A stretch of 30,799 bases of DNA from an uncultured Trueperaceae bacterium (GCA_963815215.1 CAWFFU010000007.1:1-30799); one strand, 5' to 3'. Positions 4,137 through 30,623 are shown, counted from the stretch's first letter. Notes: generated by a model not told the origin, from the sequence alone. Made by a program: numbers and translations.

Positions 4137-5324
4137 ATGAGCGACGCCAGCGCCTTCCGGACGCGCACGGAGTTCCTGCCCTTCTCCCGCCCGTCGATCG
4201 GCGAGGAGGAGATCGCGGAGGTCGTCGACACCCTGCGCTCGCAGTGGATCACCACCGGACCCAAGACGAAGGCCTTCGAGGCGCAGTTCGGGGCCTACGT
4301 CGGCGCTCCCGGCGGCACCAGCCTGATGCTCAACTCCTGTACCTCCGGGCTCCACCTGGCGCTCGCCGCCCACGGCATCGGGCCCGGCGACGAGGTCATC
4401 GTGCCCACTTTGACCTTCGCGGCGACGGCCAACGTGGTGGTGCACCTCGGCGCCCGCCCGGTGCTGGTCGACGTCCTGCCCGACACGCTGTGCATCGATC
4501 CTGCGGCGGTGGAGCGGGCGATCACCCCGGCCACCCGGGCCGTCGTTCCGGTGCACTACGGCGGGCACCCCGCCGACCTCGACGCCATCGACGCGCTCGC
4601 CGCGCGCCACGGCCTGAAGGTGGTCGAGGACGCGGCGCACTCCGCGCCCAGCCAGTACCGGGGCACCATGATCGGTGCCCGCGAGACGCTGGCGGCGTTC
4701 AGTTTCTACGCCACCAAGAACCTGACCACGGCCGAGGGCGGCGCCCTCACCGGCTCGGTCGAGGTGCTGGAGCGGGCGCGGCAGCTGTCGCTGCACGGCA
4801 TGTCGAAGGACGCCTGGAAGCGCTTCGACCGCGGCGGCTCGTGGGAGTACGACGTCGCCGTGCCCGGCTACAAGTTCAACATGACCGACATCCAGGCGTC
4901 GCTCGGCATGCACCAGCTCGACAAGCTCGAAGGCTTCCACGCCCGCCGGCGCGAGCTGGCGCAGCGTTACACCGAGGCGTTCGCCCGGCACCCCGAGCTG
5001 ATCCCGCCGGTCGAACGTGACGACGTCGTGAGCAGCTGGCACCTGTACGTGCTGCGCTTCCGGACCGAGCGCCTCACCATCGACCGCAACGCCGTCATCG
5101 AGGAGCTCACGGCGCGCAACATCGGCACCAGCGTCCACTACCGGCCGGTGCACATGATGTCGTACTACGCCGAGCGCTTCCGCTACAGCCCCGACGACTT
5201 CCCGGTGGCGCTGGGCGCCTTCGAGCGCATGGTGTCGCTGCCGCTCGATCCGCGCCTGAGCGACGCCGACGCGGACGACGTCATCCACGCCGTGCTCGAT
5301 ATCGTCGAGGCCTTCCGGAAGTAG
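4137..5324 (+). CDS. DegT/DnrJ/EryC1/StrS PLP-dependent sugar aminotransferase (WcfR/AatB/SpsC-like)
   Basis: Motifs WITTGPK, NSCTSGLHLAL, VVEDAAHS, FSFYATKNLTTAEGG (PLP Lys), SLHGMSKDAW and GYKFNMTDIQA. Confidence 0.95.
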   Translation: MSDASAFRTRTEFLPFSRPSIGEEEIAEVVDTLRSQWITTGPKTKAFEAQFGAYVGAPGGTSLMLNSCTSGLHLALAAHGIGPGDEVIVPTLTFAATANVVVHLGARPVLVDVLPDTLCIDPAAVERAITPATRAVVPVHYGGHPADLDAIDALAARHGLKVVEDAAHSAPSQYRGTMIGARETLAAFSFYATKNLTTAEGGALTGSVEVLERARQLSLHGMSKDAWKRFDRGGSWEYDVAVPGYKFNMTDIQASLGMHQLDKLEGFHARRRELAQRYTEAFARHPELIPPVERDDVVSSWHLYVLRFRTERLTIDRNAVIEELTARNIGTSVHYRPVHMMSYYAERFRYSPDDFPVALGAFERMVSLPLDPRLSDADADDVIHAVLDIVEAFRK

Positions 5325-5326
5325 CC

Positions 5327-5926
5327 GTGGCCAAGCGCACGTTCGACCTGCTGGCGGCGGGGGTCGGCCTGCTGCTGCTGTCGCCGCTGTTCGTCGTCGT
5401 CGCGCTCGCCATCAAGCTCGACTCGCAGGGGCCGGTCTTCTTCCGGCAGGCGCGGGTGGGGCGCGGCGGCCGGACCTTCCGGATCGTCAAGTTCCGGACG
5501 ATGCGGGAGCGTGCCGAGGAGGCCGGCGGCCAACTCACGGTGGCCGGCGACCCGCGCGTCACCCGGGTCGGGGCGCTGCTGCGCAAGAGCAAGGTCGACG
5601 AGCTGCCCCAGCTCTTCAACGTGGTGGTGGGGGACATGTCGCTGGTGGGGCCGCGCCCGGAGGTGCCGCGCTACGTGGCGCACTACGATGCGCGGCAGCG
5701 TCGCGTGCTCGACGTAAGGCCCGGCATCACCGACCCGGCGTCCATCGCCTACCGCGACGAGAACGACCTCCTCGACGCCGCCACGGACCCGGAGGCCGTG
5801 TACCTCGATGAGATCATGCCGGCCAAGTTGGAGATGAACCTCGCCTACCTGCAGCGTCGCAGCCTGGCCGGCGACATCGCCATCATCTTCCGTACCTTCG
5901 GGCGCATCCTGCGGCGCGGCGACTAG
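5327..5926 (+). CDS. Small bacterial sugar transferase (initiating phosphoglycosyl transferase, WcfS/PglC-like)
   Basis: KRTFD, KFRTM, DELPQLFNV..GDMSLVGPRPE and RPGIT motifs, with one N-terminal hydrophobic helix. Confidence 0.95.
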   Translation: MAKRTFDLLAAGVGLLLLSPLFVVVALAIKLDSQGPVFFRQARVGRGGRTFRIVKFRTMRERAEEAGGQLTVAGDPRVTRVGALLRKSKVDELPQLFNVVVGDMSLVGPRPEVPRYVAHYDARQRRVLDVRPGITDPASIAYRDENDLLDAATDPEAVYLDEIMPAKLEMNLAYLQRRSLAGDIAIIFRTFGRILRRGD

Positions 5927-16483: not shown

Positions 16484-16724
16484 TTCATTCCTCCCGATCG
16501 ACTCCGAGCGTTCCGGTCCGCGTGGACACAGGGTCCGCGCGACGCGATACTCGATGCCGATGTACACTCGTCACAGCCAGAACGGTGCGGAAGTGACACG
16601 CTCGCAGCATGGGGTAGTGTGCGCTCATCGGATTTGGACATGCGTCTCTCCCTATCCCGAGTGAGCGCCGACATGCTGTTCGCCGTCCCGAACGGGACTG
16701 GGCTTACGAGCCCGTGGGCACCCT

Positions 16725-17253: not shown

Positions 17254-19290
17254 TCAGCGCTGAGGCTGGGTCTTCATGCCCGGGATCATCTCCATCGCCG
17301 GATGCGTGCCGTAGAGCGATACGGTAGCCGGCGCCGCGCAGGTGTCGTTCGTATCGATATCCGGGTTCCCGCTGGTGGCGGTGTTGGTGCCGAAGGTGAC
17401 GGTGGCGTCGGTCGTGAGGTTGGTCGGAACGGTGCAGTAGTAGTGCTCGATCGCGCCGCCCCAGTCCGCGCTGTTGCCGTCGAAGTTCACGTTCGACAGG
17501 GTGGCCGTGCCGTTCGTGGCCAGGGCGAAGCCGCCGCCCAGGTCGCTCACGGTGTTGCCGGTGATGTCGGCGCCCGTGAACGAGAAGTCGCCGGCGTTAT
17601 ACGCCCCACCGCCGTAGGCGAAGGCCGAGAGCGTGTGGCTATAGGTGCTGTAGTCGGCGGTGTTGTTGCTGATGGGGCTGGCGGTCATCGTCATGGTGCC
17701 GCTGGCGTTGTAGATGCCCCCGCCCGAGTACTTCGCCACGTTGCTGTCGAAGGAGGTGTTGTTGACGGTGACGGTGCCGCCGTTGTTGTAGAGGCCGGCG
17801 CCGTAGCCGCCGTCGGACGGCGTCGTGGTGTACGTAGGGTCACTGCGGATGTCGAAGACGGTGCCCATCTCGCTGTCGAGCGTGATGGCCTGGTTGGCGT
17901 CGATATGACTGTTGGTGAGCGTCAGGGCGGCGCCGGCGCCGTTGAAGATGCCGCCGCCGAGCTCCCACGCGCGGTTACCGGTGACGGTGGAGTTGGACAC
18001 CGTGAGGGTGCCGTCGTTGAAGATGCCGGCGCCGTTGTAGATGAAGGTGCCGCCTTGGATCGTCAGGTGGTCGAGCTGCGCCGTGACGCCGGGAGCGACG
18101 AGGATCATCCGGGACTCCCAGGTGAAGGCGTCGGCGGCCGGCGTGCCGGAGGGCGCGGGCGAGACGCCGGTGAGCGTGACGCCGGCGGTCGGCCCGCTCA
18201 CGGTCACGTCGTCGCGGATGACCAGGTGCGAGTCGGGGCCGCCGGGGGGGTTATAGATGTCGACGCCCGAGATGTTGATGGAGGTGATGTCGGACGCGAA
18301 GCCGATGATGCTGCCGGAGGCGGCGTTGGCGATCTCGTAGCGCAGCGTGCCGGGGACGGGCGTCTCGGGTGTGAAGCCCTGCAGCATGTAGGGATCGTAG
18401 TCGGCGCTCGACGTGACCACGTTGGTGAGTGCGACGCTGGCGTGCGCCGTGCCGCCGGCGCCGTTCGCCACCACGCGGATGGTCTGCCGGGTGCTGGCGG
18501 GGATGTCGATGGTGGCCGTGGTGCCGGTGACGCCCGACTCGATGAGCTGCTGGTCGGTGCTGTCGGTGTTGAGGACGGCGTAGATGTCGAAGGTGGTGGC
18601 GTTGGTGGCCGACCAGCTCAGGTCGACCGTGCTGCCCATGCCGATGGGCGCCTGGAGGTTGGTGATGGTCGGCGCCGGCACCACCGTCACGTCGGCGGTG
18701 TCGGTGACGCTACCCTGGCTGTTCGTGGCCGTCAGCGTGTAGGTGACGGTCCCGGTCTGGGTGGGGGTCACGTCGACGGTGCCGGTGGGGGTCTGGGCGA
18801 TGGTGATGGCGTTGGTGCCGTCGCTCAGGCTCAGGCTGGCGGCGCCGCTGACGTCCCAGCTCAGCGTGGTGGTGCCGCCCGCACCGATGCTGGTCGGGCT
18901 CGCCGTGAAGCTGTTGATGGTCGGCGCTCCGGCCGGCACCACCGTGACCGTGATGGTCGCGGACTTGGTCTTGTCGACGGTGCTGGTGGCCGTGATCTTG
19001 GCCGTGCCGGTCTTGGTGCTGGACGCCGTGACCGTGCCGTCGCTGGCGACGGTGGCGACGGCGGTGGTGTCGCTCTTCCAGGTCACGGTCTTGGCGGCGC
19101 CGCCGAGCACCGTGACGGTGGCGGTCAGCTTCTTGGTGGTTCCCACGTTCATGGAAACGTTGCCGCCCACGATCGCCACCTTCACGACCGAAGGCGTGAC
19201 CGTCGTGGCGCAACCGGCGAACAGCACGACCAGGGCGACGATTGCCGCGAGGGTCGTGGACAGAGACAGCAGATGGTTCCTCTTCGGCAT
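17254..19290 (-). CDS. Thr-rich surface lipoprotein with Ig-like (Big_2) domains, a CSLREA-like segment and GG(G/A)I(Y/F)N beta-helix repeats
   Basis: Lipobox LFAGC, VTWKSDTTAVATVASDGTVTA (Big_2), PTINSFTASPTSI, PGTLRYEIANA, and GAGIFN/GGGIFN/GAGLYN/GGGIYN/GGAI repeats. GGAGGA at 19303-19308 suits ATG 19290 better than ATG 19302. Confidence 0.82.
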   Translation of the reverse strand: MPKRNHLLSLSTTLAAIVALVVLFAGCATTVTPSVVKVAIVGGNVSMNVGTTKKLTATVTVLGGAAKTVTWKSDTTAVATVASDGTVTASSTKTGTAKITATSTVDKTKSATITVTVVPAGAPTINSFTASPTSIGAGGTTTLSWDVSGAASLSLSDGTNAITIAQTPTGTVDVTPTQTGTVTYTLTATNSQGSVTDTADVTVVPAPTITNLQAPIGMGSTVDLSWSATNATTFDIYAVLNTDSTDQQLIESGVTGTTATIDIPASTRQTIRVVANGAGGTAHASVALTNVVTSSADYDPYMLQGFTPETPVPGTLRYEIANAASGSIIGFASDITSINISGVDIYNPPGGPDSHLVIRDDVTVSGPTAGVTLTGVSPAPSGTPAADAFTWESRMILVAPGVTAQLDHLTIQGGTFIYNGAGIFNDGTLTVSNSTVTGNRAWELGGGIFNGAGAALTLTNSHIDANQAITLDSEMGTVFDIRSDPTYTTTPSDGGYGAGLYNNGGTVTVNNTSFDSNVAKYSGGGIYNASGTMTMTASPISNNTADYSTYSHTLSAFAYGGGAYNAGDFSFTGADITGNTVSDLGGGFALATNGTATLSNVNFDGNSADWGGAIEHYYCTVPTNLTTDATVTFGTNTATSGNPDIDTNDTCAAPATVSLYGTHPAMEMIPGMKTQPQR

Positions 19291-19467
19291 GATACCCACC
19301 ATTCCTCCACATCACATGGAACGTGTCGCAACCACAGTGCGGACGCCTAAAAGCGTACTGAGCACCCGCCGTCCGCTGCGCTCATCCGTCACAGCACCAG
19401 ACGGTACCGTATCGAACGCTCCGAGGCGCCGCCGGCGGACCGCACAGCGCCGGCGACCGACGTGGCC

Positions 19468-19473
19468 TAGACT
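19468..19473 (+). promoter_or_regulatory. Possible -10 element TAGACT for the asnB operon
   Basis: Matches TAnnnT in the divergent intergenic region 110 nt before ATG 19584. No clear -35. Confidence 0.3.
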
Positions 19474-19583
19474 TGCACTGCGGGCCCCTTCGGCGGGGCC
19501 GTGAACGCCTCGGCCGACGTCATCGAGGGTGCCGACGCCCGGCGCCCGATCTGCAACCCCCGAGGGAGGACCGACCCCACCCC

Positions 19584-21605
19584 ATGTGCGGCATCGCTGG
19601 CATCCATGTTCCTACCGACCGCGCGCCTTCGCGCGACGTCCTGCTGGCGATGGCCGGCGAGCTGGCCCACCGCGGTCCGGACGGCGTCGGCCTGTATCTC
19701 GACGGCCGCTTGGGCATGGTCAACACGCGCCTGTCCATCATCGACCTGGCCGGCGGCGACCAGCCGCTCTCCAACGAGGACGGCCGCCTGTGGGTCATGC
19801 AGAACGGCGAGATCTACAACTACCCCGAGCTCACCGAGGAGCTCCGCGCCCTGGGCCACACCTTCGCCACCCGTTCCGACACCGAGGTCATCGTCCACGC
19901 CTACGAGCAGTGGGGTGAGGGCTGCCTCGAGCGGCTGAACGGTGAGTTCGCCTTCGCCATCTGGGACCGGGCGGCCCGCGAGCTGTTCCTGGCGCGCGAC
20001 CGGTTCGGCATCCGCCCCCTGTTCCTGGCCGAGTTCGGCGGCGAGATGGCGTTCGCCTCGGAGGCCAAGGCGTTGCTGCGGCACCCGCGCGCGGAGCGTC
20101 GCATCGACCCGTTCGCGGTGCTGGAGACCTTCACCCTGTGGGCGCCGCAGCCCGACCGCAGCGCCTTCCCCGGCATCCGCGAGCTGGCGCCTGGGCACTT
20201 CGTCCGGGTGTCCGACGCCGGCGCGGCGCCGCAACAGCGCTGGTGGGACCTGCGCTTCGGTCCCCGCGAGGGCGAACGCAGCGAGCGCCCCGAGGCCCTG
20301 GCCGAGGAGCTGGCCGGGCTGCTCGACGACGCCACCCGCATCCGGCTGCGCGCGGACGTGCCGGTGGGGGTGTACCTGAGCGGCGGTCTGGACTCCTCGG
20401 CCACGGCGGCGCTGGCGCGGCGTCACACATCGCGCGAGCTGCACGCCTTCGGCATCGGCTTCGAGGACGAGCGTTTCGACGAGAGCCGCTACCAGGACGA
20501 CATGGCGGAGGCGCTGGGGGTCTCCCTCAAGCGCATCACGGTGTCGGGGCGCGACGTGGCGGACGCCTTCCCCGAGGTGGTCCGCATGGCCGAGAAGCCG
20601 ATGCTGCGCACGGCGCCGGGGCCGCTGCTGCGGCTGTCGCGCTCGGTGCGCGAGGCCGGCCTCAAGGTGGTGCTGACCGGCGAGGGCGCCGACGAGGTCT
20701 TCGGCGGCTACAACATCTTCCGCGAGGCGATGGTGCGCCGCTTCTGGGCCCGCCGGCCCGAGTCCCGCCTGCGACCGGCGCTCCTCGGGCGCCTCTACCC
20801 CTACCTGGCGCGCGACCTCCGACGCGGCGGCGGCTTCCTGGCGGAGTTCTTCCGCGACGGTCTGGAGGATGTCGACGACCCGCTCTACAGCCACCGCCCC
20901 CGCTTCAAGACCACCGCCCGCAACCAGCGCTTCCTGAGCCCCGAAGTGCGGGCCTCGGCCGAGGCCGTGGGACAGCCGGAGGACCGCCTCCTCGCCCGCC
21001 TGCCGGCGGCGTTCGCCGCCATGGGCCCGCTGGGGCAGGCGCAGTACCTGGAGATCGCCACCTTCCTCGAGGGTTACCTGCTCCACTCCCAGGGCGACCG
21101 CATGCTGATGGCCAACTCGGTCGAGGGCCGTTTCCCGTTCCTCGACGTGCACGTCGCGGAGTTCGCCGCGCGGCTGCCCGAGCGCCTACGGCTGCGCGAC
21201 CTGCAGGAGAAGTACCTGCTGCGCAAGGCGGTGGCGCCGCTGCTGCCCGAAGCGGTGTGGAAGCGTCCCAAGCGGCCCTACCGCGCCCCCATCCTGCGCG
21301 CCTTCTTCGGGCCGCAGGCGCCACCCTACGTCCTGGAGCTGCTGGCGCCAGAGCGCATCGATGCCGACGGCCTGTTCGTGGGCCGGGCCGTGGAGCGGCT
21401 GACCGCGAAGTGCGAGCGCTACCTCGATACCGGCCTGAGCGAGAGCGACGAGATGGGCCTGGTGGGCGTGCTCTCGACCCAGCTGCTGGTGGACCAGCTG
21501 GTACGGTCCCCGCGCCTGGCGCCCCCCGCGGTGCCCACCCGGGTGGTCGTCGGGGCGACGGTGGAGCGGGGCGGCTCCGCCGCGCCGCCCCGAAGGAAGG
21601 ACTGA
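19584..21605 (+). CDS. asnB: Asparagine synthase (glutamine-hydrolysing) family amidotransferase
   Basis: N-terminal MCGIAG (Ntn Cys), HRGPDG, RLSIID, NGEIYNY, RDRFGIRPL, LSGGLDSS, LTGEGADEVFGGY, EGRFPFLD; GGAGGA RBS. Confidence 0.95.
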   Translation: MCGIAGIHVPTDRAPSRDVLLAMAGELAHRGPDGVGLYLDGRLGMVNTRLSIIDLAGGDQPLSNEDGRLWVMQNGEIYNYPELTEELRALGHTFATRSDTEVIVHAYEQWGEGCLERLNGEFAFAIWDRAARELFLARDRFGIRPLFLAEFGGEMAFASEAKALLRHPRAERRIDPFAVLETFTLWAPQPDRSAFPGIRELAPGHFVRVSDAGAAPQQRWWDLRFGPREGERSERPEALAEELAGLLDDATRIRLRADVPVGVYLSGGLDSSATAALARRHTSRELHAFGIGFEDERFDESRYQDDMAEALGVSLKRITVSGRDVADAFPEVVRMAEKPMLRTAPGPLLRLSRSVREAGLKVVLTGEGADEVFGGYNIFREAMVRRFWARRPESRLRPALLGRLYPYLARDLRRGGGFLAEFFRDGLEDVDDPLYSHRPRFKTTARNQRFLSPEVRASAEAVGQPEDRLLARLPAAFAAMGPLGQAQYLEIATFLEGYLLHSQGDRMLMANSVEGRFPFLDVHVAEFAARLPERLRLRDLQEKYLLRKAVAPLLPEAVWKRPKRPYRAPILRAFFGPQAPPYVLELLAPERIDADGLFVGRAVERLTAKCERYLDTGLSESDEMGLVGVLSTQLLVDQLVRSPRLAPPAVPTRVVVGATVERGGSAAPPRRKD

Positions 21606-21609
21606 CGCC

Positions 21610-23175
21610 ATGAAGCCCGTCCTGAAACCGAGATACGAACGCCTGCTCCACGACAGCCTGGCGCGGAGCGCCGCCGAGGTGCCCGACAAGGAAGCGGTGG
21701 TCACGGCCGACGAGCGCATCAGCTACCGCGAGCTCGACGAGCGCTCGCGGGCGCTGGCGCACGGGCTGCGCGAGCGCGGCGTGAGGCGCGGCGACCGGGT
21801 GGCCGTCTACCTCGAGAACAGCGCCACCGTGGTGGTCGGCGTGTACGCCGCGCTGCGGGCCGGCGCCGCCTTCATGGTCGTCAACCCGCAGACCAAGGCC
21901 GACAAGCTGCGCTACATCCTGAGTGACAGCGGCGCGGTCGCCCTGCTGACCGACGGTCGCCTGGCCCGCACGGTGGCGGAGGTGGTGGACGAGCTGCCGT
22001 CGCTCCACACCGTTGTGCTGCGGGGCCGCGCGACCGTGGAGGTGCCTCGCGCCGTCGACCTCGACGCGCTGACGGCGGCGGCGCCGGACGACGCCGCCGA
22101 CCCGGGCACCATCCCCCTCGACCTGGCGGCGCTCGTCTACACCTCGGGCAGCACCGGCAACCCCAAGGGGGTGATGCTGTCGCACCAGAACATGGTGTTC
22201 GCGCAGCAGAGCCTGTGCGACTACCTGCGCCTCGGCCGCGACGACCGCATCCTCGACGTGGTGCCGCTCGCCTTCGACTACGGGCTGTACCAGGCGCTGA
22301 TGAGCGTCCACCTGGGCGCCACGCTGGTGCTCGAGCCCTCCTTCGCCTTCCCCAACCAGGTGGTGCAGCGCGTCAACGAGGAGGCGGTCACGGTGCTCCC
22401 CGGCGTGCCCACGGTGTTCGCCACCCTGGTGTCGATGCATCGACACCAGCGCCTGTCGATGCCGACGGTGCGGCGCATCACCAACACGGCCGCGCACCTG
22501 CCCGACGACCACGTGCCGATGCTGCTGGAGATGTGTCCCGACGCCCTGGTCTACAAGATGTACGGGCTGACGGAGTGCAAGCGCGTGTGCTACCTGGAGC
22601 CCGAGCTGGCGCTGGTCAAGCCCCTGAGCGTCGGCAAGGCCATCCCGGGCACCGAGACGTCCGTCCTCGACGATCGCGGGCGTCCCGTGGCGCCCGGCGA
22701 GATCGGCGTTCTCCACGTGCGCGGCCCGCATGTGATGATGGGGTACTGGAACCTCCCCGATGCGACCGCGCACATGCTGAAGCCGGGGCCCTATCCCGGC
22801 GAGCGCATGCTCTGCACGCACGACTACTTCAAGACCGACGAGGACGGCTTCCTGTACTTCGTGGGTCGCAGCGACGACGTGATCAAGAGCCGGGGCGAGA
22901 AGGTGAGCCCGGTGGAGGTCGAGAACGCCCTGAGCGGGATCCCGGGCGTACGCGAGGCTGCCGTGGTGGGCGTGCCCGACGAGCTGATGGGGCAGGCGGT
23001 CCGCGCCTTCGTGGTGCTGGAGGAGGGCGCCGAGCTGGACGAGAGGGCGTTCCGCCGTCACTGTCTGGCGAGGCTGGAGAGCTTTATGGTGCCGAGAGAC
23101 GTCGTGTTCGTGGCCGATCTTCCCAAGACGGCCTCCGGCAAGGTCCGCAAACGGGATCTCGTCGAAGGGGTCTAG
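21610..23175 (+). CDS. Stand-alone adenylating enzyme (AMP-binding, ANL superfamily)
   Basis: YTSGSTGNPKG, PLAFDYG, YGLTE, FVGRSDDVIKSRGEKVSP and LPKTASGKV (catalytic Lys). Confidence 0.93.
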   Translation: MKPVLKPRYERLLHDSLARSAAEVPDKEAVVTADERISYRELDERSRALAHGLRERGVRRGDRVAVYLENSATVVVGVYAALRAGAAFMVVNPQTKADKLRYILSDSGAVALLTDGRLARTVAEVVDELPSLHTVVLRGRATVEVPRAVDLDALTAAAPDDAADPGTIPLDLAALVYTSGSTGNPKGVMLSHQNMVFAQQSLCDYLRLGRDDRILDVVPLAFDYGLYQALMSVHLGATLVLEPSFAFPNQVVQRVNEEAVTVLPGVPTVFATLVSMHRHQRLSMPTVRRITNTAAHLPDDHVPMLLEMCPDALVYKMYGLTECKRVCYLEPELALVKPLSVGKAIPGTETSVLDDRGRPVAPGEIGVLHVRGPHVMMGYWNLPDATAHMLKPGPYPGERMLCTHDYFKTDEDGFLYFVGRSDDVIKSRGEKVSPVEVENALSGIPGVREAAVVGVPDELMGQAVRAFVVLEEGAELDERAFRRHCLARLESFMVPRDVVFVADLPKTASGKVRKRDLVEGV

Positions 23176-23247
23176 GGAAGGCCGTCGGGGGGCGTCACGC
23201 GACACGGAGACTTGAATCCGAGCAGGAATGAAAGAGGGCGCGCAAGC

Positions 23248-23517
23248 ATGTCCGAGACCGAGCGAGACGTACGACAGTTCGTGGCCGACAACTTCATCCT
23301 CGACCGGGGAGCGGACGACCTCCCCGGGGACGAGTCGCTGACCCAGAGCGGCGTGCTCGACTCGATGGGCGTGCTCGAGCTGATCCTGTTCATCGAGGAG
23401 CGCTTCGGCGTCAAGGTCCCCGATGAAGACACCCTGCCCGCCAACCTCGATACCGTCGACAACATCGTCCGCTACGTGCAGGGGAGGCTCACGGGAGTGT
23501 CGGCGGCCGATGCCTGA
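23248..23517 (+). CDS. Acyl/aminoacyl carrier protein
   Basis: 89 aa, acidic, with the phosphopantetheine motif GVLDSMGVLELILFIEERFGV. Confidence 0.92.
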   Translation: MSETERDVRQFVADNFILDRGADDLPGDESLTQSGVLDSMGVLELILFIEERFGVKVPDEDTLPANLDTVDNIVRYVQGRLTGVSAADA

Positions 23518-24505
23518 AGCTCCGCCCCTGTCCGCCGACGCGCTGCGCCTCCCCGACCCGGAAGGCGCCGTCGAGACGATCGTGGAGGGCGTGCGCCGCG
23601 AGGTGCGCGGGTTCCGGCGCAAGGGAGCGGTGGTGGGGCTCTCCGGCGGGATCGACAGCACCGTGGTGGCCACGCTCGCCGCCCGCGCGTTCGGCCCGGA
23701 GAACGTGCTCGGCGTGCTCATGCCCGAGGCCGATTCGGCGCCGGACACGCTGTCGCTCAGCCGCCTGGCCGCCGAGAGCGCGGGCATCGAGACCGTGCTG
23801 GAGGACATCACGCCGCTGCTCGAGGCCTCGGGCTGCTACCGACGTCGTGACGAGGCGATCGCCCGCGTGCTCCCGGAGTACGACGCCAGCTGGAAGGCGA
23901 AGCTGGTGCTGCCGAGCGTGGTCGACACCGATCGCTACCGCATCTTCTCGGTGGTCGCCGAAGCGCCGGACGGCCGGCAACGCAGCGCCCGGCTGCCGCC
24001 GGCGGAGTACCTCCAGGTGGTGGCCGCCACCAACTTCAAGCAGCGCTGCCGCAAGATGATGGAGTACTACCACGCCGACAGGCTCAACTACGCGGTGATG
24101 GGGACGCCCAACCGGCTCGAGTACGACCAGGGGTTCTTCGTCAAGAACGGCGACGGTTCGGCCGACGTCAAGCCCATCGCCCACCTGTACAAGACGCAGG
24201 TCTACCAGCTCGCCGCCACCCTCGGCGTGCCCGAGGAGATCCGCTCCAGGCCCCCGACGACCGACACCTTCTCGATGCCGCAGAGCCAGGAGGAGTTCTA
24301 CTTCTCGCTCCCCTACGACAAGATGGACCTCTGCCTGTATGCGGTCAACCAGGGGCTCGGGCCCGAGGACGTGGCCGGGGCGGTGGGGCTGAGCGCCGAT
24401 CAGGTGCAGCGCGTGTTCCAGGACATCGCCGGCAAGCGGCGCATGAGCCGCTACCTCCACGCCTCGCCGCGACTGCTGGGTCCGGTCGAGGGCGTCCGAC
24501 CGTGA
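23510..24505 (+). CDS. nadE: NH3-dependent NAD+ synthetase-like protein (no glutaminase domain)
   Basis: VVGLSGGIDS PP-loop, NFKQR, GTPNRLE..QGFFVKNGDG, PIAHLYKTQVYQLA, PPTTD. The ATG at 23510 overlaps the end of the ACP gene. Confidence 0.88.
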   Translation: MPEAPPLSADALRLPDPEGAVETIVEGVRREVRGFRRKGAVVGLSGGIDSTVVATLAARAFGPENVLGVLMPEADSAPDTLSLSRLAAESAGIETVLEDITPLLEASGCYRRRDEAIARVLPEYDASWKAKLVLPSVVDTDRYRIFSVVAEAPDGRQRSARLPPAEYLQVVAATNFKQRCRKMMEYYHADRLNYAVMGTPNRLEYDQGFFVKNGDGSADVKPIAHLYKTQVYQLAATLGVPEEIRSRPPTTDTFSMPQSQEEFYFSLPYDKMDLCLYAVNQGLGPEDVAGAVGLSADQVQRVFQDIAGKRRMSRYLHASPRLLGPVEGVRP

Positions 24506-25662
24506 GCGGCGCCACGCCCGCGAACGCCACGCCCGCGAACGCCGCGACCGGCCTCGAAGCCGTACGGATCCGTCCGTTCGAGCCCTCCGACGCGCGCAGC
24601 GTGGCCTCGCTGTGGCAGTACTGGTTCCGGGACAAGACGCGCGAGCCGGCCCCGGGTCTCACCGAGCTGGTGACGCGCATCTACCACGACAACCCGAACC
24701 ACGACCCGGAGGTGCCTTCGCTGGTGGCGGAGGGCGAGGGTGGGCGCATGCTCGGCTTCCTGGGCGTGACGGTGACGCCCGTCAGCCTCGACGGCGCGCC
24801 CGCGACGCTCGCCTGCGTGTTCCCCTCGGTGGTCGACCCCGACGCCCCCACCACCCTGGCGAGCCTGCTGTTGCGCAAATCCCTGGCGGGCCCCCAGGCC
24901 TTCACCTTCAGCGATGGCGGGAACGTCAAGTTCGAGCGCATCTGGGAGCTGCTGGGGGGGAGGATCGCCCAGCTGCAGTCGTTGCGCTGGGTGAAGGTGC
25001 TCCGGCCGTTCGAGCTGGGCATCGACATGCTGGCGGAGCGCCGGCGCGGCGTGACGGCGTGGCGTTCGGCCGCGCCGCTGGCGCGCGGCGCTGACCTGGT
25101 GGCGCGCCGCGTCGCGCCCGGGAGGCTGGGCGCCCGGCGTTCGACGTTGCGGGCCGAGCCGCTCACCCCCGACACGCTGATCGAGGCCAACGCCGCCCTG
25201 AACGCCCGCATGCGGATGCGGCCGGAGTACCAGGCCGGCTACGTGCGCTGGCTGCTCGACGAGATGGCGCGCAACGACGAGCAGGGACGCTTCACGGCCA
25301 CGCTGGTGCGCGACGCGCGCGGCGGCGTGGCCGGCTGGTACGCCTACTATCTGCGGCCGGGCGGGGTCAGCCGGGTGTTCGCGCTGGAGGCGCACGAGCG
25401 CCGGCTCGACGAGGTGATCGACCACCTGTTCGGCGAGGCCGACGCCGGCGGAGCCGGCGGGCTCATCGGGCGGCTCGGCCCGCGGCTGCGCCGGCCCATG
25501 GCGGCCCGCGGCTGCCTGGTGCACGGGGGCGGCTCGTTGCAGATGGTGCACTCGCGTGACGCGGGTCTGGTGGACGACGCCCTGCTCGGGCGCCTGGCGT
25601 TCAGCCGGCTCGACGGCGAGAGCTGGTACTGGTGGCGCCTCATCGCCCGCCAGCTCCCCTGA
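24502..25662 (+). CDS. GNAT-like acyltransferase (probably two lobes)
   Basis: IRPFEPSDARSVASL N-terminus and LVAEGEGGRMLGFLG are typical GNAT strands; second lobe LVRDARGGVAGWYAYY. GTGA overlap with nadE. Confidence 0.65.
   Translation: MSGATPANATPANAATGLEAVRIRPFEPSDARSVASLWQYWFRDKTREPAPGLTELVTRIYHDNPNHDPEVPSLVAEGEGGRMLGFLGVTVTPVSLDGAPATLACVFPSVVDPDAPTTLASLLLRKSLAGPQAFTFSDGGNVKFERIWELLGGRIAQLQSLRWVKVLRPFELGIDMLAERRRGVTAWRSAAPLARGADLVARRVAPGRLGARRSTLRAEPLTPDTLIEANAALNARMRMRPEYQAGYVRWLLDEMARNDEQGRFTATLVRDARGGVAGWYAYYLRPGGVSRVFALEAHERRLDEVIDHLFGEADAGGAGGLIGRLGPRLRRPMAARGCLVHGGGSLQMVHSRDAGLVDDALLGRLAFSRLDGESWYWWRLIARQLP
24511..24540 (+). repeat. 2 x 15-bp repeat GCCACGCCCGCGAAC (ATPAN)2 at the GNAT N-terminus
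   Basis: Read directly. Confidence 0.85.
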
Positions 25663-25921
25663 CGCGGCCGTCGGGTGGCGGTCCGAACCTCAGTTGTCAC
25701 GGCGCTGTAAGAGTGGACTTGCAAGAATGCAGGTAGTTGAACGGACCGGAGTCCCTTGCGCTGCGAACTGCGTTGTGTATAGGGCACCCGGCGTCCAACT
25801 CGACCAGGCGGTGGGGGCGTCATTCGTTGCTGCGGAACCGGGAGTTCTCCATGTTTGCCATGGCCGTCATCTATTCCATCGTTATCCGAGGCCACGATCG
25901 TCTTGTGGAGGGCGTTGAAGC

Positions 25922-27970
25922 ATGCTAGGAGCCGCTGCCGCTCGTGAGGTGCGCCGTTGGATCGGGCGTCTGCCCGCAACCCGACTCGGCCAGGTCGTCA
26001 AGGTATCGCTCGATATCGGAGTCATCGTGGCGGCACCCGCCCTCGCGATCCTTCTCAGGCTCGATGCGACGCCCTCGGCCACCGTCTGGTTGACGGTCGC
26101 CTGGGCCACCGTGCTCATGGTGCCCATCAAGCTGCTCACCTACGCCATCGTGCAGCCGTACGCCCAGTCGTGGCGCGCGGTGACCTTCCGTGATTACGGC
26201 AACCTGGCCTCGATGGCGGCGGCGTATGCCGTGCCGGCCACCATCGGCATGCTCTTCCTGGGGCCGGTGCTGGGTGTTCCGCGTACGATGCCGCTCCTCG
26301 ACGCGCTGCTGACCGTGTCGGCCATGGCCGGGATGCGGGCCTGGGCGCGCTTCGAACACGAGCGTCGGGGCCGGATGTCGGTCGAGCCGGGCAACCGGTC
26401 GCGCGTGCTGGTGGTGGGGGCCGGCGAGGCCGGGGCGCTGGTGGCGCGGGAGCTGCTGCGTCACCCGGAGACCGGCATGGAACCGGTGGGCTTCATCGAC
26501 GACGACGCGGCGAAGCTCGGCATGCGCGTGGCCAGCGTGCCCGTACTCGGGACGCTGATCGACGTGCGCCGGGTGATCCGCGAGCGGAAGATCAACGAGG
26601 TGCTCATCGCCATCCCGTCCGAGGGCGGGCGCACCGCGCGGCGCGTCATCGACCTGATCGAGGACGCCGCCCCCGGCCTGAAGTACAAGATCATCCCCGC
26701 CATGCACGAGGTGCTCTCGGGCAAGGTCGACGTGCGGCGCATCCGTAACGTCGACGTCGGCGACCTGCTCGGGCGGGCGCCGGTACGGCTCGACACCGAG
26801 GCCATCCTCGGCTACCTGAAGGGCAAGCGCGTCATGATCACCGGCGCGGGAGGGTCGATCGGCTCCGAACTGGTACGCCAGATCTGCGCGTTCATGCCGG
26901 CCGAGCTCATCCTGTTCGGGCACGGCGAGAACAGCATCTATGCCCTCGAGCGCGAGCTCGATCGCAACTGGCCCGACATCCGCTATCGCGGCGTCATCGG
27001 GGCGATCCAGAACGGCGACCGGCTGGACTACGTGTTCTCCACCTACAAGCCGGACGTGGTCTTCCACGCCGCGGCCCACAAGCACGTCCCGCTCATGGAG
27101 CAGAACCCCGAGGAAGCGATCTTCAACAACGTCATCGGCAGCCGCAACCTCATCTCGATGGCGCTGAAGTACGGCGTGTCGCACTTCGTCAACATCTCCA
27201 CCGACAAGGCCGTCAACCCTTCGTCGGTGATGGGCGCATCGAAGCGCATGGTGGAGTACCTGGTGCAGGACGCGGCCCAGCGCGCGGCGCCCGATCAGGT
27301 GTTCGTGTCGGTGCGCTTCGGCAACGTGCTGGGCAGCCGCGGATCGGTCATCCCCATCTTCACCAGCCAGATCGCGGCGGGCGGTCCCGTGACCGTGACC
27401 CACCCCGACATGGTGCGCTACTTCATGACCATCCCCGAGGCCACGCAGCTCGTGCTGCAGGCGTCCGGGCGCGGGCAAAACGGCCACATCTACATCCTCG
27501 ACATGGGCGAGCCCGTGCGCATCGTCGATCTGGCGCGCGACCTGATCCGCCTCAGCGGCTTCGAGCCGGGCCTGGACATCGACATCGAGTACACCGGCAT
27601 GCGTCCGGGCGAGAAGCTGAGCGAGATGCTCATGACCGACAAGGAACGGACCGCCGGCACGTCGCATGAGAAGATCTTCGTGGCGAACGTGGAGCCGGCG
27701 CCGCACGAGCAGCTGATGGCGATCGTCGGCGAGCTGCAGCGCGAGGCCAAGGTCTCCGACCACGCGGCGATCCGCGAGACCCTCCAGCACTTCCTCGAGG
27801 GGTGCCGGCTGACGCCGACCGACGACGCGGTGTCGCGGGACGCGCTGTCGCCGGACGCGGTGTCGCGGGACGCGGTGTCGCCGGACGCGGTGTCGCCGGA
27901 CGCCGAGCCGAAACGGTTCATCGGTCGTTCGCGAGAGGCGACGCAGGCGCAAGTCGAGACGGGCGTCTGA
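25922..27970 (+). CDS. Membrane-anchored UDP-GlcNAc 4,6-dehydratase (CapD/PglF/WbpM family)
   Basis: Four N-terminal TM helices, VVGAGEAG, ITGAGGSIGSELVRQI, VFHAAAHKHVPLME, ISTDKAVNPSSVMGASKR, VRFGNVLGSRGSVIP, RPGEKL. Confidence 0.95.
   Translation: MLGAAAAREVRRWIGRLPATRLGQVVKVSLDIGVIVAAPALAILLRLDATPSATVWLTVAWATVLMVPIKLLTYAIVQPYAQSWRAVTFRDYGNLASMAAAYAVPATIGMLFLGPVLGVPRTMPLLDALLTVSAMAGMRAWARFEHERRGRMSVEPGNRSRVLVVGAGEAGALVARELLRHPETGMEPVGFIDDDAAKLGMRVASVPVLGTLIDVRRVIRERKINEVLIAIPSEGGRTARRVIDLIEDAAPGLKYKIIPAMHEVLSGKVDVRRIRNVDVGDLLGRAPVRLDTEAILGYLKGKRVMITGAGGSIGSELVRQICAFMPAELILFGHGENSIYALERELDRNWPDIRYRGVIGAIQNGDRLDYVFSTYKPDVVFHAAAHKHVPLMEQNPEEAIFNNVIGSRNLISMALKYGVSHFVNISTDKAVNPSSVMGASKRMVEYLVQDAAQRAAPDQVFVSVRFGNVLGSRGSVIPIFTSQIAAGGPVTVTHPDMVRYFMTIPEATQLVLQASGRGQNGHIYILDMGEPVRIVDLARDLIRLSGFEPGLDIDIEYTGMRPGEKLSEMLMTDKERTAGTSHEKIFVANVEPAPHEQLMAIVGELQREAKVSDHAAIRETLQHFLEGCRLTPTDDAVSRDALSPDAVSRDAVSPDAVSPDAEPKRFIGRSREATQAQVETGV
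27824..27910 (+). repeat. 5+ x 15-bp coding repeat (DAVSR/DALSP/DAVSP) in the dehydratase C-terminal tail
   Basis: GACGCG(G/C)TGTCGC(G/C)G units at 27824, 27839, 27854, 27869 and 27884, plus a partial unit. Confidence 0.9.
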
Positions 27971-28079: not shown

Positions 28080-28970
28080 CTACGCCGCTGCGACCTGGTC
28101 TGCGCCCGACGCTGTGTCGGGAGCTGCGTCCGTCGCCGCGGGCGGGGATAGGTCGAGGAGGGTGAGCTCCGCCGGGCACGCCACCCGCAGCGGCAACAGG
28201 GTCACCCCGAGCCCGCGCGTGACGTAGCCGCGGGCCGGCGCCTCCACCCAGCCGTGGGCGAAGCGGCGGCCGTAGTACGAGGACGTGACGATCGGGCCGA
28301 TGCCGGGGATGCACACCTGGCCGCCGTGCGTGTGCCCGGACAGGGTGAGGCCGACGTCGATCGGCACCGTCGGGAGTACGTCGGGATTGTGCGACAGCAG
28401 GACGGTGGCGACCCCCGGCGGTCTGTCTGCCAGGGCGGCCTCGAGGTCGGGTCGGCCGGTCCGGAAGTCGTCGATGCCCGTCAGGAAGAGGTCGTCGCGC
28501 ACGCGCACGCCGCGGTTCACCAGCACCTCGACGCCGGCGCCGAGGAGCAGCGTCGCGAACCGCCCCAGGTCGCTGACGCGGCGGTGGTCGTGGTTGCCCC
28601 AGACCGCGTAGGCGCCGAGCGGCGCCTCCAGCCTGCCGAGCTCGCCCAGCAGGGCGGGGGTGCCGCGACCCACGTCCTCATCGACGAGGTCGCCGTCCAG
28701 CACGATCAGATCGGGCTGCTCACGGGCGACGGCATCTACCCACGCCGCCACCGATCCCGCACGGATGAAGGGCCCGTAGTGGAGGTCGGCCATGAGCGCC
28801 ACGCGCAGCGGCCGGCGCAACCCCTTCAGGGTCGCGGCGTAGCGGGTCACGTCGAAACGGTAGGCCGCACCCACCGAGGCGCCTGCGGCCACCGCTCCCA
28901 ACGCGCCCAGGATCCAGAGCAGCGCTCCCCTACGCGTGACCGTCGCCCTCTCGAGGCGGCTTCCGCTCAC
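28080..28970 (-). CDS. Calcineurin-like metallophosphoesterase (YkuE/YaeI type)
   Basis: ADLHYG, GDLVD, GNHD, LSHNPD and SGHTHGGQ motifs; N-terminal TRRGALL plus a hydrophobic stretch. Confidence 0.93.
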   Translation of the reverse strand: MSGSRLERATVTRRGALLWILGALGAVAAGASVGAAYRFDVTRYAATLKGLRRPLRVALMADLHYGPFIRAGSVAAWVDAVAREQPDLIVLDGDLVDEDVGRGTPALLGELGRLEAPLGAYAVWGNHDHRRVSDLGRFATLLLGAGVEVLVNRGVRVRDDLFLTGIDDFRTGRPDLEAALADRPPGVATVLLSHNPDVLPTVPIDVGLTLSGHTHGGQVCIPGIGPIVTSSYYGRRFAHGWVEAPARGYVTRGLGVTLLPLRVACPAELTLLDLSPPAATDAAPDTASGADQVAAA

Positions 28971-29006: not shown

Positions 29007-30623
29007 TCAACGGCGCTGGCCGACACGTGTACGCTTGGGCTTCTCGGCCTGGGCCCGGGCCTGGGTGCGGTAGGGGTCCGTCGTCTGGCTGTCGAGGCCG
29101 ATCCGATCGTACGGGGTCCGCGCGCCCCCGACGGCCCGCCGTCTAGGCACGCCCGTGAACACCGATCCGAGCAGCTGACCGTGGTTCCCGCCGAGCATGG
29201 TGACCGCCGTCGCCAGTTGTTCGCGGGTGGTCTGGTGCTCGTTGACGCACAGCACCAGGCCCGTGCACTGCGGGGCGATGGCGACCGTGTCGGCGAACGG
29301 CAGCACGGGAGGCGCGTCGACCACCACCACGTCGTAGCTCGACCGCCACGCCTCGAGCCAGGCGGCGAAGGCGCCGCTGAGCAGCTCGGCCGGATAGGTG
29401 GCGGGGGCGAAGCTGGGGATGAAATCGAAGCTGCGCTTGCCGCCGATGTCGATGGTGGCCGGGGGCAGGGAGCGCCCCGGGTTCTCGAGGTGCAGCTCGA
29501 GCGAGGGGCTCGCCTTCTCGTCGATCTCCAGGGCACGCGTGGCGCCGGGTCCGCGCAGATCCGCATCGACGAACAGGGTGGCGTAGCCCGTACGCGCGAA
29601 GCTCTCGGCCAGGCTGAGGGCCACCCCCTCCTTCTCGGCCGGCGTGTGCGGGCTGGTCACGGCCACCACCAGTGGGAGCTCGCGGCCGGCCACGGAGAAC
29701 ACGTTCGTCCGCAGGAAGTTGGCGGCCTCCCTGGACAGGCGACGGTCACGGCGGCGCGGGCGCGGGAACTCGGCGAGCAGCGGCCCGCCCCCGAGCCCGA
29801 TCAGGTCGCCGCGCCCGCGTACGCGGCGGTCCAGCGTCCAGCGCAGGAACAGCAGCAGGTAGGCGCCGAACAGGCCCGTTACCGCGGCGACGAACGTCTT
29901 CAGCACGACCCGCGGCCCGACTGAGAGCTGGGGGGTCGTGGCCATGGCCAGCGGTTCGAGCAGGCCGACGAACACGGCCGAGTCGGCGCTGGAGCGGGCC
30001 GTCTGCAGCTCTTTGGTGCGCTGCTGAAGCAGTGCGCCCAGCGAAGCCCGCGTGTTGGCCGTGGTGTTGGGGTCCTGGAGCTGCCGGTTGAGGTCACCGA
30101 TCGACTGCTGGATGGCGGCGATGGCGCGCTCGAGGTTGCCTCGCGCCCGGTTCCGGTCCCAGCTCACCACCGCCAGCGCCAGCGCATTCGCGGCGTTGGC
30201 GGCGAAGGCGGGGTCGCTCGCCTCGATCTGGATGTTGACGATGCTGGACAGGACCTTCTTGTCCACGATCACGGTCATGTGTCGCTTGAAGGCGCGCACC
30301 CGCGACGGGCTCGGCGTCTTCCCCTCGAGCTCGGTGAGGGTCTGCGCTACCACCGGGCCGTCCTGAAGCACCGACTGGTAGACTCCCGGGTCCACCGGCG
30401 GCGGCGCAACGACGGAGTCGCCAGCGTAGGTGGTGCCCGGCTGGGACGCCAGCAGCGAGGCGGTCGCCCGGTAGATGGGGCTCTGCCGCCGCGTCAACAG
30501 GAACGCCGTGGCGCCGGCGAGCAGGGCGATCACCAGCGCGAACGCAGCACCCCGCCACACGAACCGCATGAACTCCTGAAAGTCCATCGCCTTGGCCGTG
30601 GTGCGGTCGGAGGGTTGGGTCAT
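29007..30623 (-). CDS. Wzc-like polysaccharide co-polymerase / BY-kinase-like protein, paralog 3
   Basis: VTSPHTPAEKEG (degenerate Walker A), LFVDADLRGP, YDVVVVDAPP; tail TPYD...DPYRT. Clearly homologous to paralog 2 (LLASQ, VDPxVY, EAANFxR, DFxPSF). Confidence 0.88.
   Translation of the reverse strand: MTQPSDRTTAKAMDFQEFMRFVWRGAAFALVIALLAGATAFLLTRRQSPIYRATASLLASQPGTTYAGDSVVAPPPVDPGVYQSVLQDGPVVAQTLTELEGKTPSPSRVRAFKRHMTVIVDKKVLSSIVNIQIEASDPAFAANAANALALAVVSWDRNRARGNLERAIAAIQQSIGDLNRQLQDPNTTANTRASLGALLQQRTKELQTARSSADSAVFVGLLEPLAMATTPQLSVGPRVVLKTFVAAVTGLFGAYLLLFLRWTLDRRVRGRGDLIGLGGGPLLAEFPRPRRRDRRLSREAANFLRTNVFSVAGRELPLVVAVTSPHTPAEKEGVALSLAESFARTGYATLFVDADLRGPGATRALEIDEKASPSLELHLENPGRSLPPATIDIGGKRSFDFIPSFAPATYPAELLSGAFAAWLEAWRSSYDVVVVDAPPVLPFADTVAIAPQCTGLVLCVNEHQTTREQLATAVTMLGGNHGQLLGSVFTGVPRRRAVGGARTPYDRIGLDSQTTDPYRTQARAQAEKPKRTRVGQRR

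Follow-up and report, generated by a model that had tools for sequence, protein, structure and literature searches.

A carrier-protein gene cassette in a Trueperaceae polysaccharide locus as a candidate route to aminoacylated amino sugars

What does a carrier protein, accompanied by a putative loading enzyme and two amide-forming enzymes, contribute to a polysaccharide locus? This question is raised by five adjacent genes at positions 19584-25662 of a 30,799-nucleotide stretch of DNA from an uncultured Trueperaceae bacterium (GCA_963815215.1, CAWFFU010000007.1), hereafter called the window. In order, the genes encode an AsnB-type glutamine-dependent amidotransferase (AsnB), an adenylating enzyme (the ligase), a stand-alone acyl carrier protein (ACP), an enzyme of the NadE family (the NadE-like enzyme) and a putative transferase (gene 5). 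A prediction made earlier from the sequence alone (the original prediction) held that the five genes form a module that loads an amino acid or small acid on the ACP, modifies it and passes it to a glycan. In the reading that we favour, to which we assign a probability of roughly 45%, an amidated aspartyl-type unit would be assembled on the ACP and passed to the 4-amino group of a uridine diphosphate (UDP)-linked 4-amino sugar.

Specifically, the ligase, which resembles the aspartate-type adenylating enzyme VinN, would adenylate an aspartate-type acid at the carboxyl group beta to the amino group and load it, in thioester linkage, on the phosphopantetheine arm of the 89-residue ACP. The free alpha-carboxylate, held in the ligase by a conserved Lys-Arg pair, would be adenylated by the NadE-like enzyme and converted to a carboxamide, a step that would replace the decarboxylation that follows loading in the vicenistatin pathway. 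Gene 5 would then take the aminoacyl unit off the ACP and attach it to the 4-amino group of UDP-4-amino-4,6-dideoxy-N-acetylhexosamine (UDP-4-amino-4,6-dideoxy-HexNAc) supplied by PglF-like and DegT enzymes, standing in for the missing acetyltransferase PglD, and a PglC-like enzyme would start the repeat unit with the aminoacylated sugar. Gene structure, family and fold assignments, synteny and pocket residues were computed, and from these we infer every step of the mechanism.

All five genes lie on the plus strand of this G+C-rich DNA (roughly 72%), in frames with a third-position GC content of 0.84-0.98. As originally described, they are co-oriented and closely spaced, with gaps of 4 and 72 nucleotides and overlaps of 8 and 4 nucleotides. 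The asnB gene has GAGGGAGG upstream of its start and its protein begins MCGIAG; the ligase gene begins 4 nucleotides past the AsnB stop codon, and the 72-nucleotide spacer that follows it leads to the ACP gene, with AGAGGG upstream. The ATG of the NadE-like gene overlaps the ACP stop codon by 8 nucleotides (ATGCCTGA) and the GTG of gene 5 overlaps the NadE-like stop codon by 4 nucleotides. Most homologues of gene 5 begin about 20 codons downstream, at M-x-I-R-P-F, and thus its true start may be later. No promoter-like or terminator-like sites were seen in 19200-26000, and no Rfam families were matched in the window.

The arrangement recurs elsewhere. Back-translated gene 5 motifs were searched in contigs from one genome per species, and gene order was read by tblastn with the window proteins. 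The search recovered 20 loci from other genomes in which the order AsnB-ligase-ACP-NadE-gene 5 recurs at 44-87% protein identity, and the arrangement is therefore not a matter of chance. These loci are labelled as metagenome-assembled genomes of Trueperaceae, Deinococcales, Gemmatimonadaceae, Opitutales and Myxococcales. The ligase and ACP genes stand directly upstream of the NadE-like gene in all 19 Deinococcales-type loci with at least 2.5 kb of upstream sequence; these 19 are not independent, since they come from related genomes and gene 5 was the route to many of them. When sampling proceeded through the NadE-like gene, 8 of 40 relatives carried the NadE type whose family match is split, and the ligase and ACP genes were adjacent in all seven loci fetched. 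Three of these seven have gene 5, two (L042 and L043) have a gene with PglD_N and Hexapep domains, and two (L041 and L044) have neither. One of the three, from a same-genus genome (L048, G008:C10, 7894-11799), has gene 5 as two overlapping pieces in different frames and a ligase that is matched only partly; this cassette may be decaying, or its assembly may be in error.

Two further groups of loci extend this pattern. A second gene order, NadE-AsnB-ACP, is contiguous in seven of eight further genomes fetched, the eighth being cut by a contig end. The ligase gene lies alongside in six of the seven, and a gene-5 homologue (32% identity) is found in two (L053 and L054). Locus L054 is an exopolysaccharide (EPS) locus with a Wzc-like kinase, a PrsR-like regulator, an EPS sugar transferase and XrtA-associated-type glycosyltransferases, and its ligase scores 483 bits against TIGR03098 (cut-off 592). 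The eight genomes come from the phylum of the Gemmatimonadaceae genome, where proteins of the NadE-like subfamily NF002048 occur in 9 of 151 genomes. A search of plasmids with the NadE-like protein matched 117 records, 76 of them from Sinorhizobium. On Sinorhizobium meliloti pSymB (L059), AsnB (49% identity to the window protein), ACP (38%), ligase (49%) and NadE (62%) genes stand in a row; together with Mesorhizobium pMESCI01 (L060), the identities are 49% for AsnB, 37-38% for ACP, 49% for the ligase and 59-62% for NadE. The Mesorhizobium genes are annotated as asnB, acyl carrier protein, class I adenylate-forming enzyme and nadE, and are followed on the opposite strand by a gene-5 homologue (32%) and a HemK/PrmC-type methyltransferase (L060 8039-9876). 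The window genes at 19584-24505 fit this asnB-ACP-ligase-nadE cassette, in that the four homologous genes are adjacent on one strand.

The five parts travel together in two arrangements, both in polysaccharide loci. Indeed, the original prediction had proposed a gene-neighbourhood search for such co-occurrence, and wherever the flanking sequence suffices, in Deinococcales-type and second-order loci alike, the modules were found in polysaccharide loci.

Gene 5, the glycan locus and the candidate acceptor

Gene 5 has no match in Pfam or NCBIfam, even at an E value of 10. Among 7999 scored candidates from a search of 5.8 billion proteins, 96 relatives were found at E ≤0.001, most of them unnamed and one called GNAT. 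An AlphaFold model computed with 25 relatives in the alignment has a predicted local distance difference test score (pLDDT) of 91.6, and its top Foldseek match is an N-myristoyltransferase (E = 2.4e-14, TM-score of about 0.5). An exhaustive structural search likewise returned N-myristoyltransferase 8fbt_B (Z 19.2, root-mean-square deviation (rmsd) 5.3, 305 residues aligned), together with a mycobacterial tandem GNAT (Z 18.1), Eis-like acetyltransferases at Z 17-18 (2hv2_A, Z 18.2, rmsd 3.8, 290 aligned; 3sxn, Z 17.3) and the mycothiol synthase MshD (1ozp, Z 13.8). Acetyltransf_9 (PF13527) is matched by 14 of 25 members of the gene 5 family at E ≤0.1 (best 2.9e-07), the window protein being unmatched, and a distant homologue in locus L045 matches Acetyltransf_1 (PF00583) with 26.7 bits (cut-off 20.7). 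Because of the fold searches and the Acetyltransf_9 matches of its relatives, the modelled gene 5 product is classed as a tandem-GNAT N-acyltransferase-like protein with two GNAT folds per chain. No Fem chain occurs among the 50 best structural matches or the Foldseek matches listed, an absence that does not exclude the family. The identities first proposed for the five genes (AsnB, adenylase, ACP, NadE-like and GNAT) are borne out by Pfam and NCBIfam for the first four and, for gene 5, by a fold that matches the Eis, N-myristoyltransferase and MshD types.

The polysaccharide flanks that were noted at the outset form a Wzx/Wzy locus, with Wzx, Wzy, one GT2 and three GT4 glycosyltransferases, three Wzz/tyrosine-kinase-like genes and PglF-like, DegT and PglC-like genes (Table 1). 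The 4,6-dehydratase, 4-aminotransferase and small phosphoglycosyl transferase of the Pgl-type diamino-trideoxyhexose pathway are thus all matched in the window. For the PglD/NeuD-type acetyltransferase of this pathway, nothing scores over the cut-off in this 97%-complete genome (the best TIGR03570 match has 56.1 bits versus a cut-off of 160.8), and the window itself yields only a 27-bit stretch within the PglF-like gene. Within the locus, gene 5 is the sole candidate for an N-acyltransferase. The PglD_N and Hexapep gene follows NadE instead of gene 5 in L042 and L043; its TIGR03570 score exceeds the cut-off in L042 (167.9 bits) and falls short of it in L043 (144 bits). The PglF-like gene adjoins the cassette in 12 of the 25 Deinococcales-type loci fetched, the others having short flanks, and in six loci (L005, L007, L008, L009, L011 and L012) the PglF-, DegT- and PglC-like genes are all found no farther than 7 kb from it. 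Aspartyl groups joined via C4 to 4-amino-4,6-dideoxy sugars are described from nature, for example in the Providencia stuartii O33 O-antigen, in the excerpted text of PMC10609480.

The earlier suggestion of a 4-amino sugar as the acceptor is therefore reasonable, given the presence of PglF-, DegT- and PglC-like genes and the lack of a PglD-type match over the cut-off genome-wide. Regarding the broader claim of transfer to the glycan, the location of the modules in polysaccharide loci stands, whereas the link to the glycan itself is one that we infer from context.

A possible but unlikely alternative is that the amidated carrier-bound unit is made as proposed and then given to something else, such as a different sugar group (a hydroxyl or an amine), a lipid, a protein or a small molecule, with the Pgl-like genes merely part of the same locus. 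This would account for the rhizobial four-gene core, which has no Pgl-like genes around it in the DNA fetched, for L041 and L044, where no transferase is adjacent, for L045, which has PglD plus a gene-5 homologue, and for the second-order loci, which give no PglF or DegT match in the DNA fetched. It fits poorly with a window genome that has the dehydratase, the aminotransferase and the PglC-like initiator but no PglD-type enzyme over the cut-off, and with the PglD-like gene that occupies the place of gene 5 in L042 and L043.

Table 1 Genes of the cassette and predicted sugar-supply genes in the window
Feature	Coordinates	Strand	Remarks
AsnB-type glutamine-dependent amidotransferase	19584..21605	+	673 aa; N-terminal Cys2 nucleophile, SGGLDS PP-loop
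VinN-like adenylating enzyme (ligase), predicted ACP loader	21610..23175	+	521 aa; AMP-binding
Stand-alone acyl/aminoacyl carrier protein (ACP)	23248..23517	+	89 aa; serine motif LDSMGVLEL
NadE-family PP-loop ATP-pyrophosphatase, subfamily NF002048, predicted amide-forming enzyme	23510..24505	+	331 aa; SGGIDS
Gene 5, tandem-GNAT N-acyltransferase-like, predicted transferase	24502..25662	+	386 aa, or ~366 aa with later start; fold and relatives
PglF/CapD-type membrane-anchored UDP-GlcNAc 4,6-dehydratase-like; would make 4-keto sugar	25922..27970	+	Polysacc_synt_2 388 bits
DegT/PglE-type sugar 4-aminotransferase; would make acceptor amine	4137..5324	+	DegT_DnrJ_EryC1 415 bits
Small PglC-like phosphoglycosyl transferase; would be initiating transferase	5327..5926	+	Bac_transf 210 bits

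Several other features of these loci are recorded here in their own right. Locus L045 (G015:C23, 1-5447), in a genome of the same family, holds a sister cassette that consists, in this order, of PglC-like and PglD-like genes, a luciferase-like monooxygenase, a different AMP-ligase (28%), an ACP and the gene-5 homologue (31%), with the monooxygenase in place of the amidating enzymes. Divergent from and upstream of the window cassette lie genes for a right-handed beta-helix pectate-lyase-like protein (14624-16567, minus strand) and a Big_2 Ig-like protein (17254-19302, minus strand). Homologues with 40-54% identity occupy the same position in about ten related loci. In relation to this polysaccharide, the two proteins may serve as a glycan depolymerase and a surface protein. 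A calcineurin-like phosphoesterase (28080-28970, minus strand) is conserved at 53-74% identity in seven related loci, where its neighbour is the PglF-like gene or the cassette. The window also contains three paralogous Wzz/AAA_31 tyrosine-kinase-like chain-length genes in one locus (695-2212 and 2358-4025, plus strand; 29007-30623, minus strand), and a predicted open reading frame (ORF) of 431 residues between two GT4 genes (7375-8670, minus strand) that has no Pfam or NCBIfam match and fails the filter on third-position GC.

Two predicted amide-forming enzymes beside a carrier protein

The NadE-like enzyme matches the Pfam family NAD_synthase (PF02540) with 177 bits in two stretches, and the NCBIfam model NF002048 with 488.7 bits (cut-off 313). 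Its structural model (pLDDT 87.2) best matches the nicotinamide mononucleotide (NMN) synthetase of Francisella (3fiu; Z 26.4, rmsd 2.8, 235 of 331 residues aligned), and matches 3q4g at Z 22.4. The two Pfam stretches are parted by an insertion of about 60 residues between NAD_synthase positions 88 and 97, which is modelled as a three-stranded sheet and carries residues C109, Y110, R112, R113, W128 and K131, invariant across both gene orders. The main argument that this enzyme amidates a carrier-bound acid is its invariable neighbourhood with the ACP and ligase genes. The start and stop codon overlaps at both ends of its gene also favour a dedicated part of the cassette. In addition, a complex predicted for two NadE-like chains and the ACP scores 0.36, versus 0.04 for the best of three controls; at least 92% of contacts are shared between the runs and the partner pLDDT is 78 or higher. 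The mark used for such predictions is reached by 116 of 157 solved complexes and by 2 of 215 mismatched pairs, and at scores of 0.60 or lower it is reached by only 18 of the 157 solved complexes along with both passing mismatches, and so the modelled complex lends the pairing weak support.

AsnB is matched by Asn_synthase (296 bits) and GATase_7 (161 bits) in Pfam and by TIGR01536 in NCBIfam (495.6 bits, cut-off 267), and its closest solved relative is TsnB9 (7ylz, 209 bits). The model for the amidotransferase of the XrtA system, TIGR03108, gives 434.4 bits, under its cut-off of 816.9. The protein has the Cys nucleophile of class II glutamine amidotransferases, a GATase domain and an Asn_synthase domain with a PP-loop. 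Its gene precedes ligase-ACP-NadE in 16 of the 19 Deinococcales-type loci and is missing in L007, L009 and L012, and thus AsnB is a frequent but dispensable fifth part of the cassette. Because of these absences, AsnB may amidate a second carboxylate or provide a glutamine-dependent route to the same amide. The idea that two amide synthetases both modify the carrier-bound acid, which formed part of the original prediction, is not supported as stated; AsnB is missing from 3 of the 19 loci with upstream sequence. A second, distant AsnB paralogue (33-35% identity to the cassette AsnB) is located within 10 kb of the cassette in L001, L013, L041 and L048.

The presence of two such enzymes invites the explanation, improbable in our estimate, that the substrate of AsnB, of the NadE-like enzyme or of both is the polymer or a nucleotide sugar instead of the carrier-bound acid, with uronic acids being amidated or the amine of the carrier-bound amino acid being joined to a sugar carboxylate. 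AsnB homologues such as WbpS amidate uronic acids in O-antigen loci, two amidating enzymes exceed the need of one aspartyl unit, and in L041 a UDP-sugar dehydrogenase lies beside the cassette. However, no UDP-sugar dehydrogenase is found among the 22 window ORFs scanned, NadE-AsnB-ACP are contiguous in seven of eight second-order loci, and the rhizobial copies keep the four genes side by side at a distance from sugar genes. The contiguity with the ACP gene in second-order and rhizobial loci ties both amidating enzymes to the carrier.

A long shot that keeps both enzymes on the carrier is that AsnB and then the NadE-like enzyme act on the same carbon, converting a carboxylate to an amide and the amide to an amidine or nitrile, which the GNAT would place on the 4-amino sugar. 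Other PP-loop enzymes turn an amide into an amidine or nitrile through activation of the amide oxygen, and the invariant Cys-Tyr-x-Arg-Arg insertion of the NadE-like enzyme would serve this activation. If true, the product could be a cationic glycan substituent of an undescribed kind, and the same chemistry might be assigned to the orphan S. meliloti operon.

We consider it highly improbable that the NadE-like gene is simply the nicotinamide adenine dinucleotide (NAD) synthetase of the cell travelling in an operon whose working module has four parts. Its subfamily model is curated as NAD(+) synthase and is matched over the cut-off, the fold is that of NadE, and this 97%-complete genome and ten other cassette genomes yielded no further NadE. 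Nevertheless, a canonical full-length NadE accompanies the cassette copy in seven genomes (G003, G005, G007, G011, G029, G196 and G197), and nine relatives without the cassette (G015, G016, G018, G019, G020, G022, G023, G024 and G026) are likewise without any NadE, from which it follows that the lack of a second NadE is common in this family. Also contrary to a housekeeping role are the conserved insertion of about 60 residues and the position of the gene beside ACP and ligase genes, which is kept across two gene orders and in no fewer than three groups at the phylum level. No match to NadD, NadC or NAPRTase was obtained in this genome, the two CTP_transf_like matches being RibF and CoaD. A NadD match is also missing in five relatives, two of which have a canonical NadE, and hence the NadD models miss the enzymes of this family. 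For this reason, the argument that this genome is unable to supply nicotinic acid adenine dinucleotide was dropped. The NMN/nicotinic acid mononucleotide adenylyltransferase of the family seems to escape these models. In a set of 14 control genomes, only that of Methanosarcina acetivorans has an NF002048 match over the cut-off.

This distinction has consequences for annotation, as pipelines call the NadE-like enzyme of the cassette NAD(+) synthase everywhere. Should it be an amide synthetase that depends on a carrier protein, errors would be present in thousands of annotations and in some reconstructions of the NAD pathway.

The ligase pocket and the loaded acid

The ligase matches the Pfam AMP-binding family with 309 bits and TIGR03098 with 441.3 bits, under the NCBIfam cut-off of 592.35. 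When whole proteins are compared with solved structures, adenylation domains of non-ribosomal peptide synthetases (NRPSs) lead (335 bits for the second adenylation domain of LgrA, 280 bits for VinN), with malonyl-CoA and other acyl-CoA synthetases ranking after them. The ligase therefore appears from its sequence to be of the amino-acid-activating rather than the fatty-acid kind. For the pocket segment alone (residues 195-345), VinN stands out with 73 bits versus 32 bits for the next chain, in a gapless alignment. Residues D230, F231, S299, K330 and R331 of VinN correspond to D, Y, T, K and R in the window ligase, all five being kept or conservatively changed, and the beta13-beta14 loop is of VinN length. 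According to the excerpted text of PMC11253843, VinN contacts 3-methylaspartate or L-aspartate through D230 (to the amino group), the bulky F231, S299, K330 and R331, and its loop has one residue fewer than in alpha-amino-acid adenylation domains. The window ligase shows the complete VinN-type signature, in which GrsA position 235 is Asp, 236 is bulky, 301 is Ser/Thr, 330-331 are Lys-Arg and the beta13-beta14 loop is shorter by one residue.

These features are conserved. FDYG, TNTAAHL and YGLTECKRV are invariant in all 19 Deinococcales-type ligases, and the ligases of S. meliloti pSymB and Mesorhizobium pMESCI01 also keep FDYGLYQ and YGLTECKR. The ACP, which matches PP-binding with 29.6 bits (cut-off 20.8), has a D38-S39-M40-G41 motif that is invariant in 15 of 15 aligned homologues. 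An adenylase and a stand-alone carrier protein are thus both present, as originally proposed. The amino acid loading that was predicted from them is likewise consistent with an adenylase nearer to NRPS adenylation domains and with a VinN-like pocket, as far as sequence can tell.

The idea that the adenylase is a fatty-acyl-AMP/ACP ligase and that the module N-acylates the sugar with a fatty acid is extremely unlikely: the S. meliloti homologue, SMb20650, was first annotated that way, but SMb20650 gives no growth on oleate (both in the excerpted text of PMC7232532), the window pocket retains the VinN amino-binding Asp and Lys-Arg pair, and NRPS adenylation domains outrank acyl-CoA ligases among solved structures. 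Fatty-acyl loading by the window ligase was rejected on the basis of the pocket residues and the oleate result.

Several findings weigh against an amidated aspartyl unit passed to a 4-amino sugar. First, among six second-order ligases, the amino-binding Asp is replaced by Val in five and the Lys by Leu or Phe in all six, with the Arg retained in all six, and therefore the loaded acid differs between cassette versions. The second-order pocket fits a dicarboxylic acid without an amino group, and the theme common to both versions, judging from these residues, would be a substrate with a carboxylate left free after loading. Second, once aspartate is attached through its side chain only a single carboxylate remains free, yet two amidating enzymes that depend on ATP are kept together, which leaves AsnB unexplained by the scheme. 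Third, no 4-amino-sugar genes were found in the 15 kb fetched around the rhizobial copies, and L041 and L044 are without these sugar genes nearby and without an adjacent acyltransferase of either kind; hence the acceptor cannot be a 4-amino sugar everywhere. Fourth, L045 combines a PglD-like gene with a distant homologue of gene 5, and so gene 5 need not replace PglD. Fifth, no other NadE was found in 11 cassette genomes, namely this one (G000, 97% complete), G001, G002, G004, G008, G010, G013, G025 (a single-contig genome), G028, G198 and G199. Finally, the weakness of the predicted NadE-like-ACP complex also counts here.

Relation to known systems

The original prediction knew of no characterised pathway with this exact gene set, and in this respect it has to be corrected. 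The four-gene core is that of the S. meliloti pSymB operon and is also annotated on Mesorhizobium plasmids. The operon asnB-SMb20651 (ACP)-SMb20650 (ligase)-nadE was reportedly described by Ramos-Vega et al. in 2009 (Microbiology 155:257). The cassette itself has therefore been in print since 2009, and the window holds a Deinococcales copy of this widespread cassette with its own tandem-GNAT inside a Wzx/Wzy locus. According to the excerpted text of PMC7232532, smb20650 and the ACP gene smb20651 are cotranscribed, and SMb20650 acylates the holo form of SMb20651 in vivo in Escherichia coli and cannot support growth on oleate. In an excerpt of PMC5686131, the function of the S. meliloti ACP is given as still to be investigated as of 2017, and our literature searches on the gene set found no characterisation of the cassette. 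For an operon that has been without a known product since 2009, the window locus offers a testable donor, amidation step and acceptor, with all the needed enzymes within one 30-kb stretch from a harmless bacterium of the environment. The two sets share four homologous genes kept together and the retained ligase motifs FDYGLYQ and YGLTECKR. They differ in that the ACP gene precedes the ligase gene in pSymB and follows it in the window, and in that the 15 kb fetched from pSymB contains neither a gene-5 transferase nor Pgl-like sugar genes.

For the loading step, the closest parallel is the vicenistatin pathway, in which VinN (PDB 3WV4, 3WV5 and 3WVN) is a beta-amino-acid adenylation enzyme and VinL a stand-alone ACP. 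VinN is the best solved match to the window pocket and has a loop of equal length, and a stand-alone ACP follows the window ligase, although the similarity over the whole protein is modest (280 bits). In vicenistatin biosynthesis, the loaded 3-methylaspartate is decarboxylated by a pyridoxal phosphate (PLP) enzyme and handed to a polyketide synthase. The window has NadE-like and AsnB enzymes in place of the decarboxylase, and has them inside a glycan locus.

For the amidation step, NadE and the Francisella NMN synthetase (3FIU) share with the NadE-like enzyme the PP-loop motif, the fold and a subfamily model matched over its cut-off. The NadE-like enzyme is set apart by its insertion of about 60 residues with the invariant Cys-Tyr-x-Arg-Arg and by its obligate ACP and ligase neighbours.

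The gene set associated with exosortase A (XrtA/PEP-CTERM) is also related, in that TIGR03098 and TIGR03108 are the best or second-best NCBIfam models for the window ligase and AsnB, and second-order loci resemble XrtA-type EPS loci. The XrtA set also comprises a carrier protein and a PLP decarboxylase. The window proteins score under both curated cut-offs, however, and the described set is not known to include a NadE-like gene.

The general logic of an adenylating enzyme and a dedicated carrier protein for decorating a surface polymer is shared with two systems, the D-alanylation of teichoic acids by DltA and DltC and the tetronate genes RfbK-O of Vibrio cholerae O1. In contrast to Dlt, transfer in the window is predicted to be cytoplasmic and onto a nucleotide sugar, and amidating enzymes are present; the Pfam scan of 22 window ORFs yields no member of the MBOAT (DltB) or DltD families. 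The charge of surface glycans is set by aminoacyl and amide substituents, and a general ACP-based route would add a new branch to glycan tailoring.

For the transfer step, the parallel is PglD of the bacillosamine pathway (NeuD/PglB/VioB family, TIGR03570). The predicted reaction of gene 5 is likewise N-acylation of UDP-4-amino-4,6-dideoxy-HexNAc, and a PglD-like gene holds the position of gene 5 in L042 and L043. Gene 5 differs in being a tandem-GNAT rather than a left-handed beta-helix, and its predicted donor is an aminoacyl-ACP rather than acetyl-CoA. To the cassette already in print, the window adds VinN-like contact residues in the ligase, Pgl-like genes without a PglD-type enzyme and, through the loci related to it, a second gene order in another phylum.

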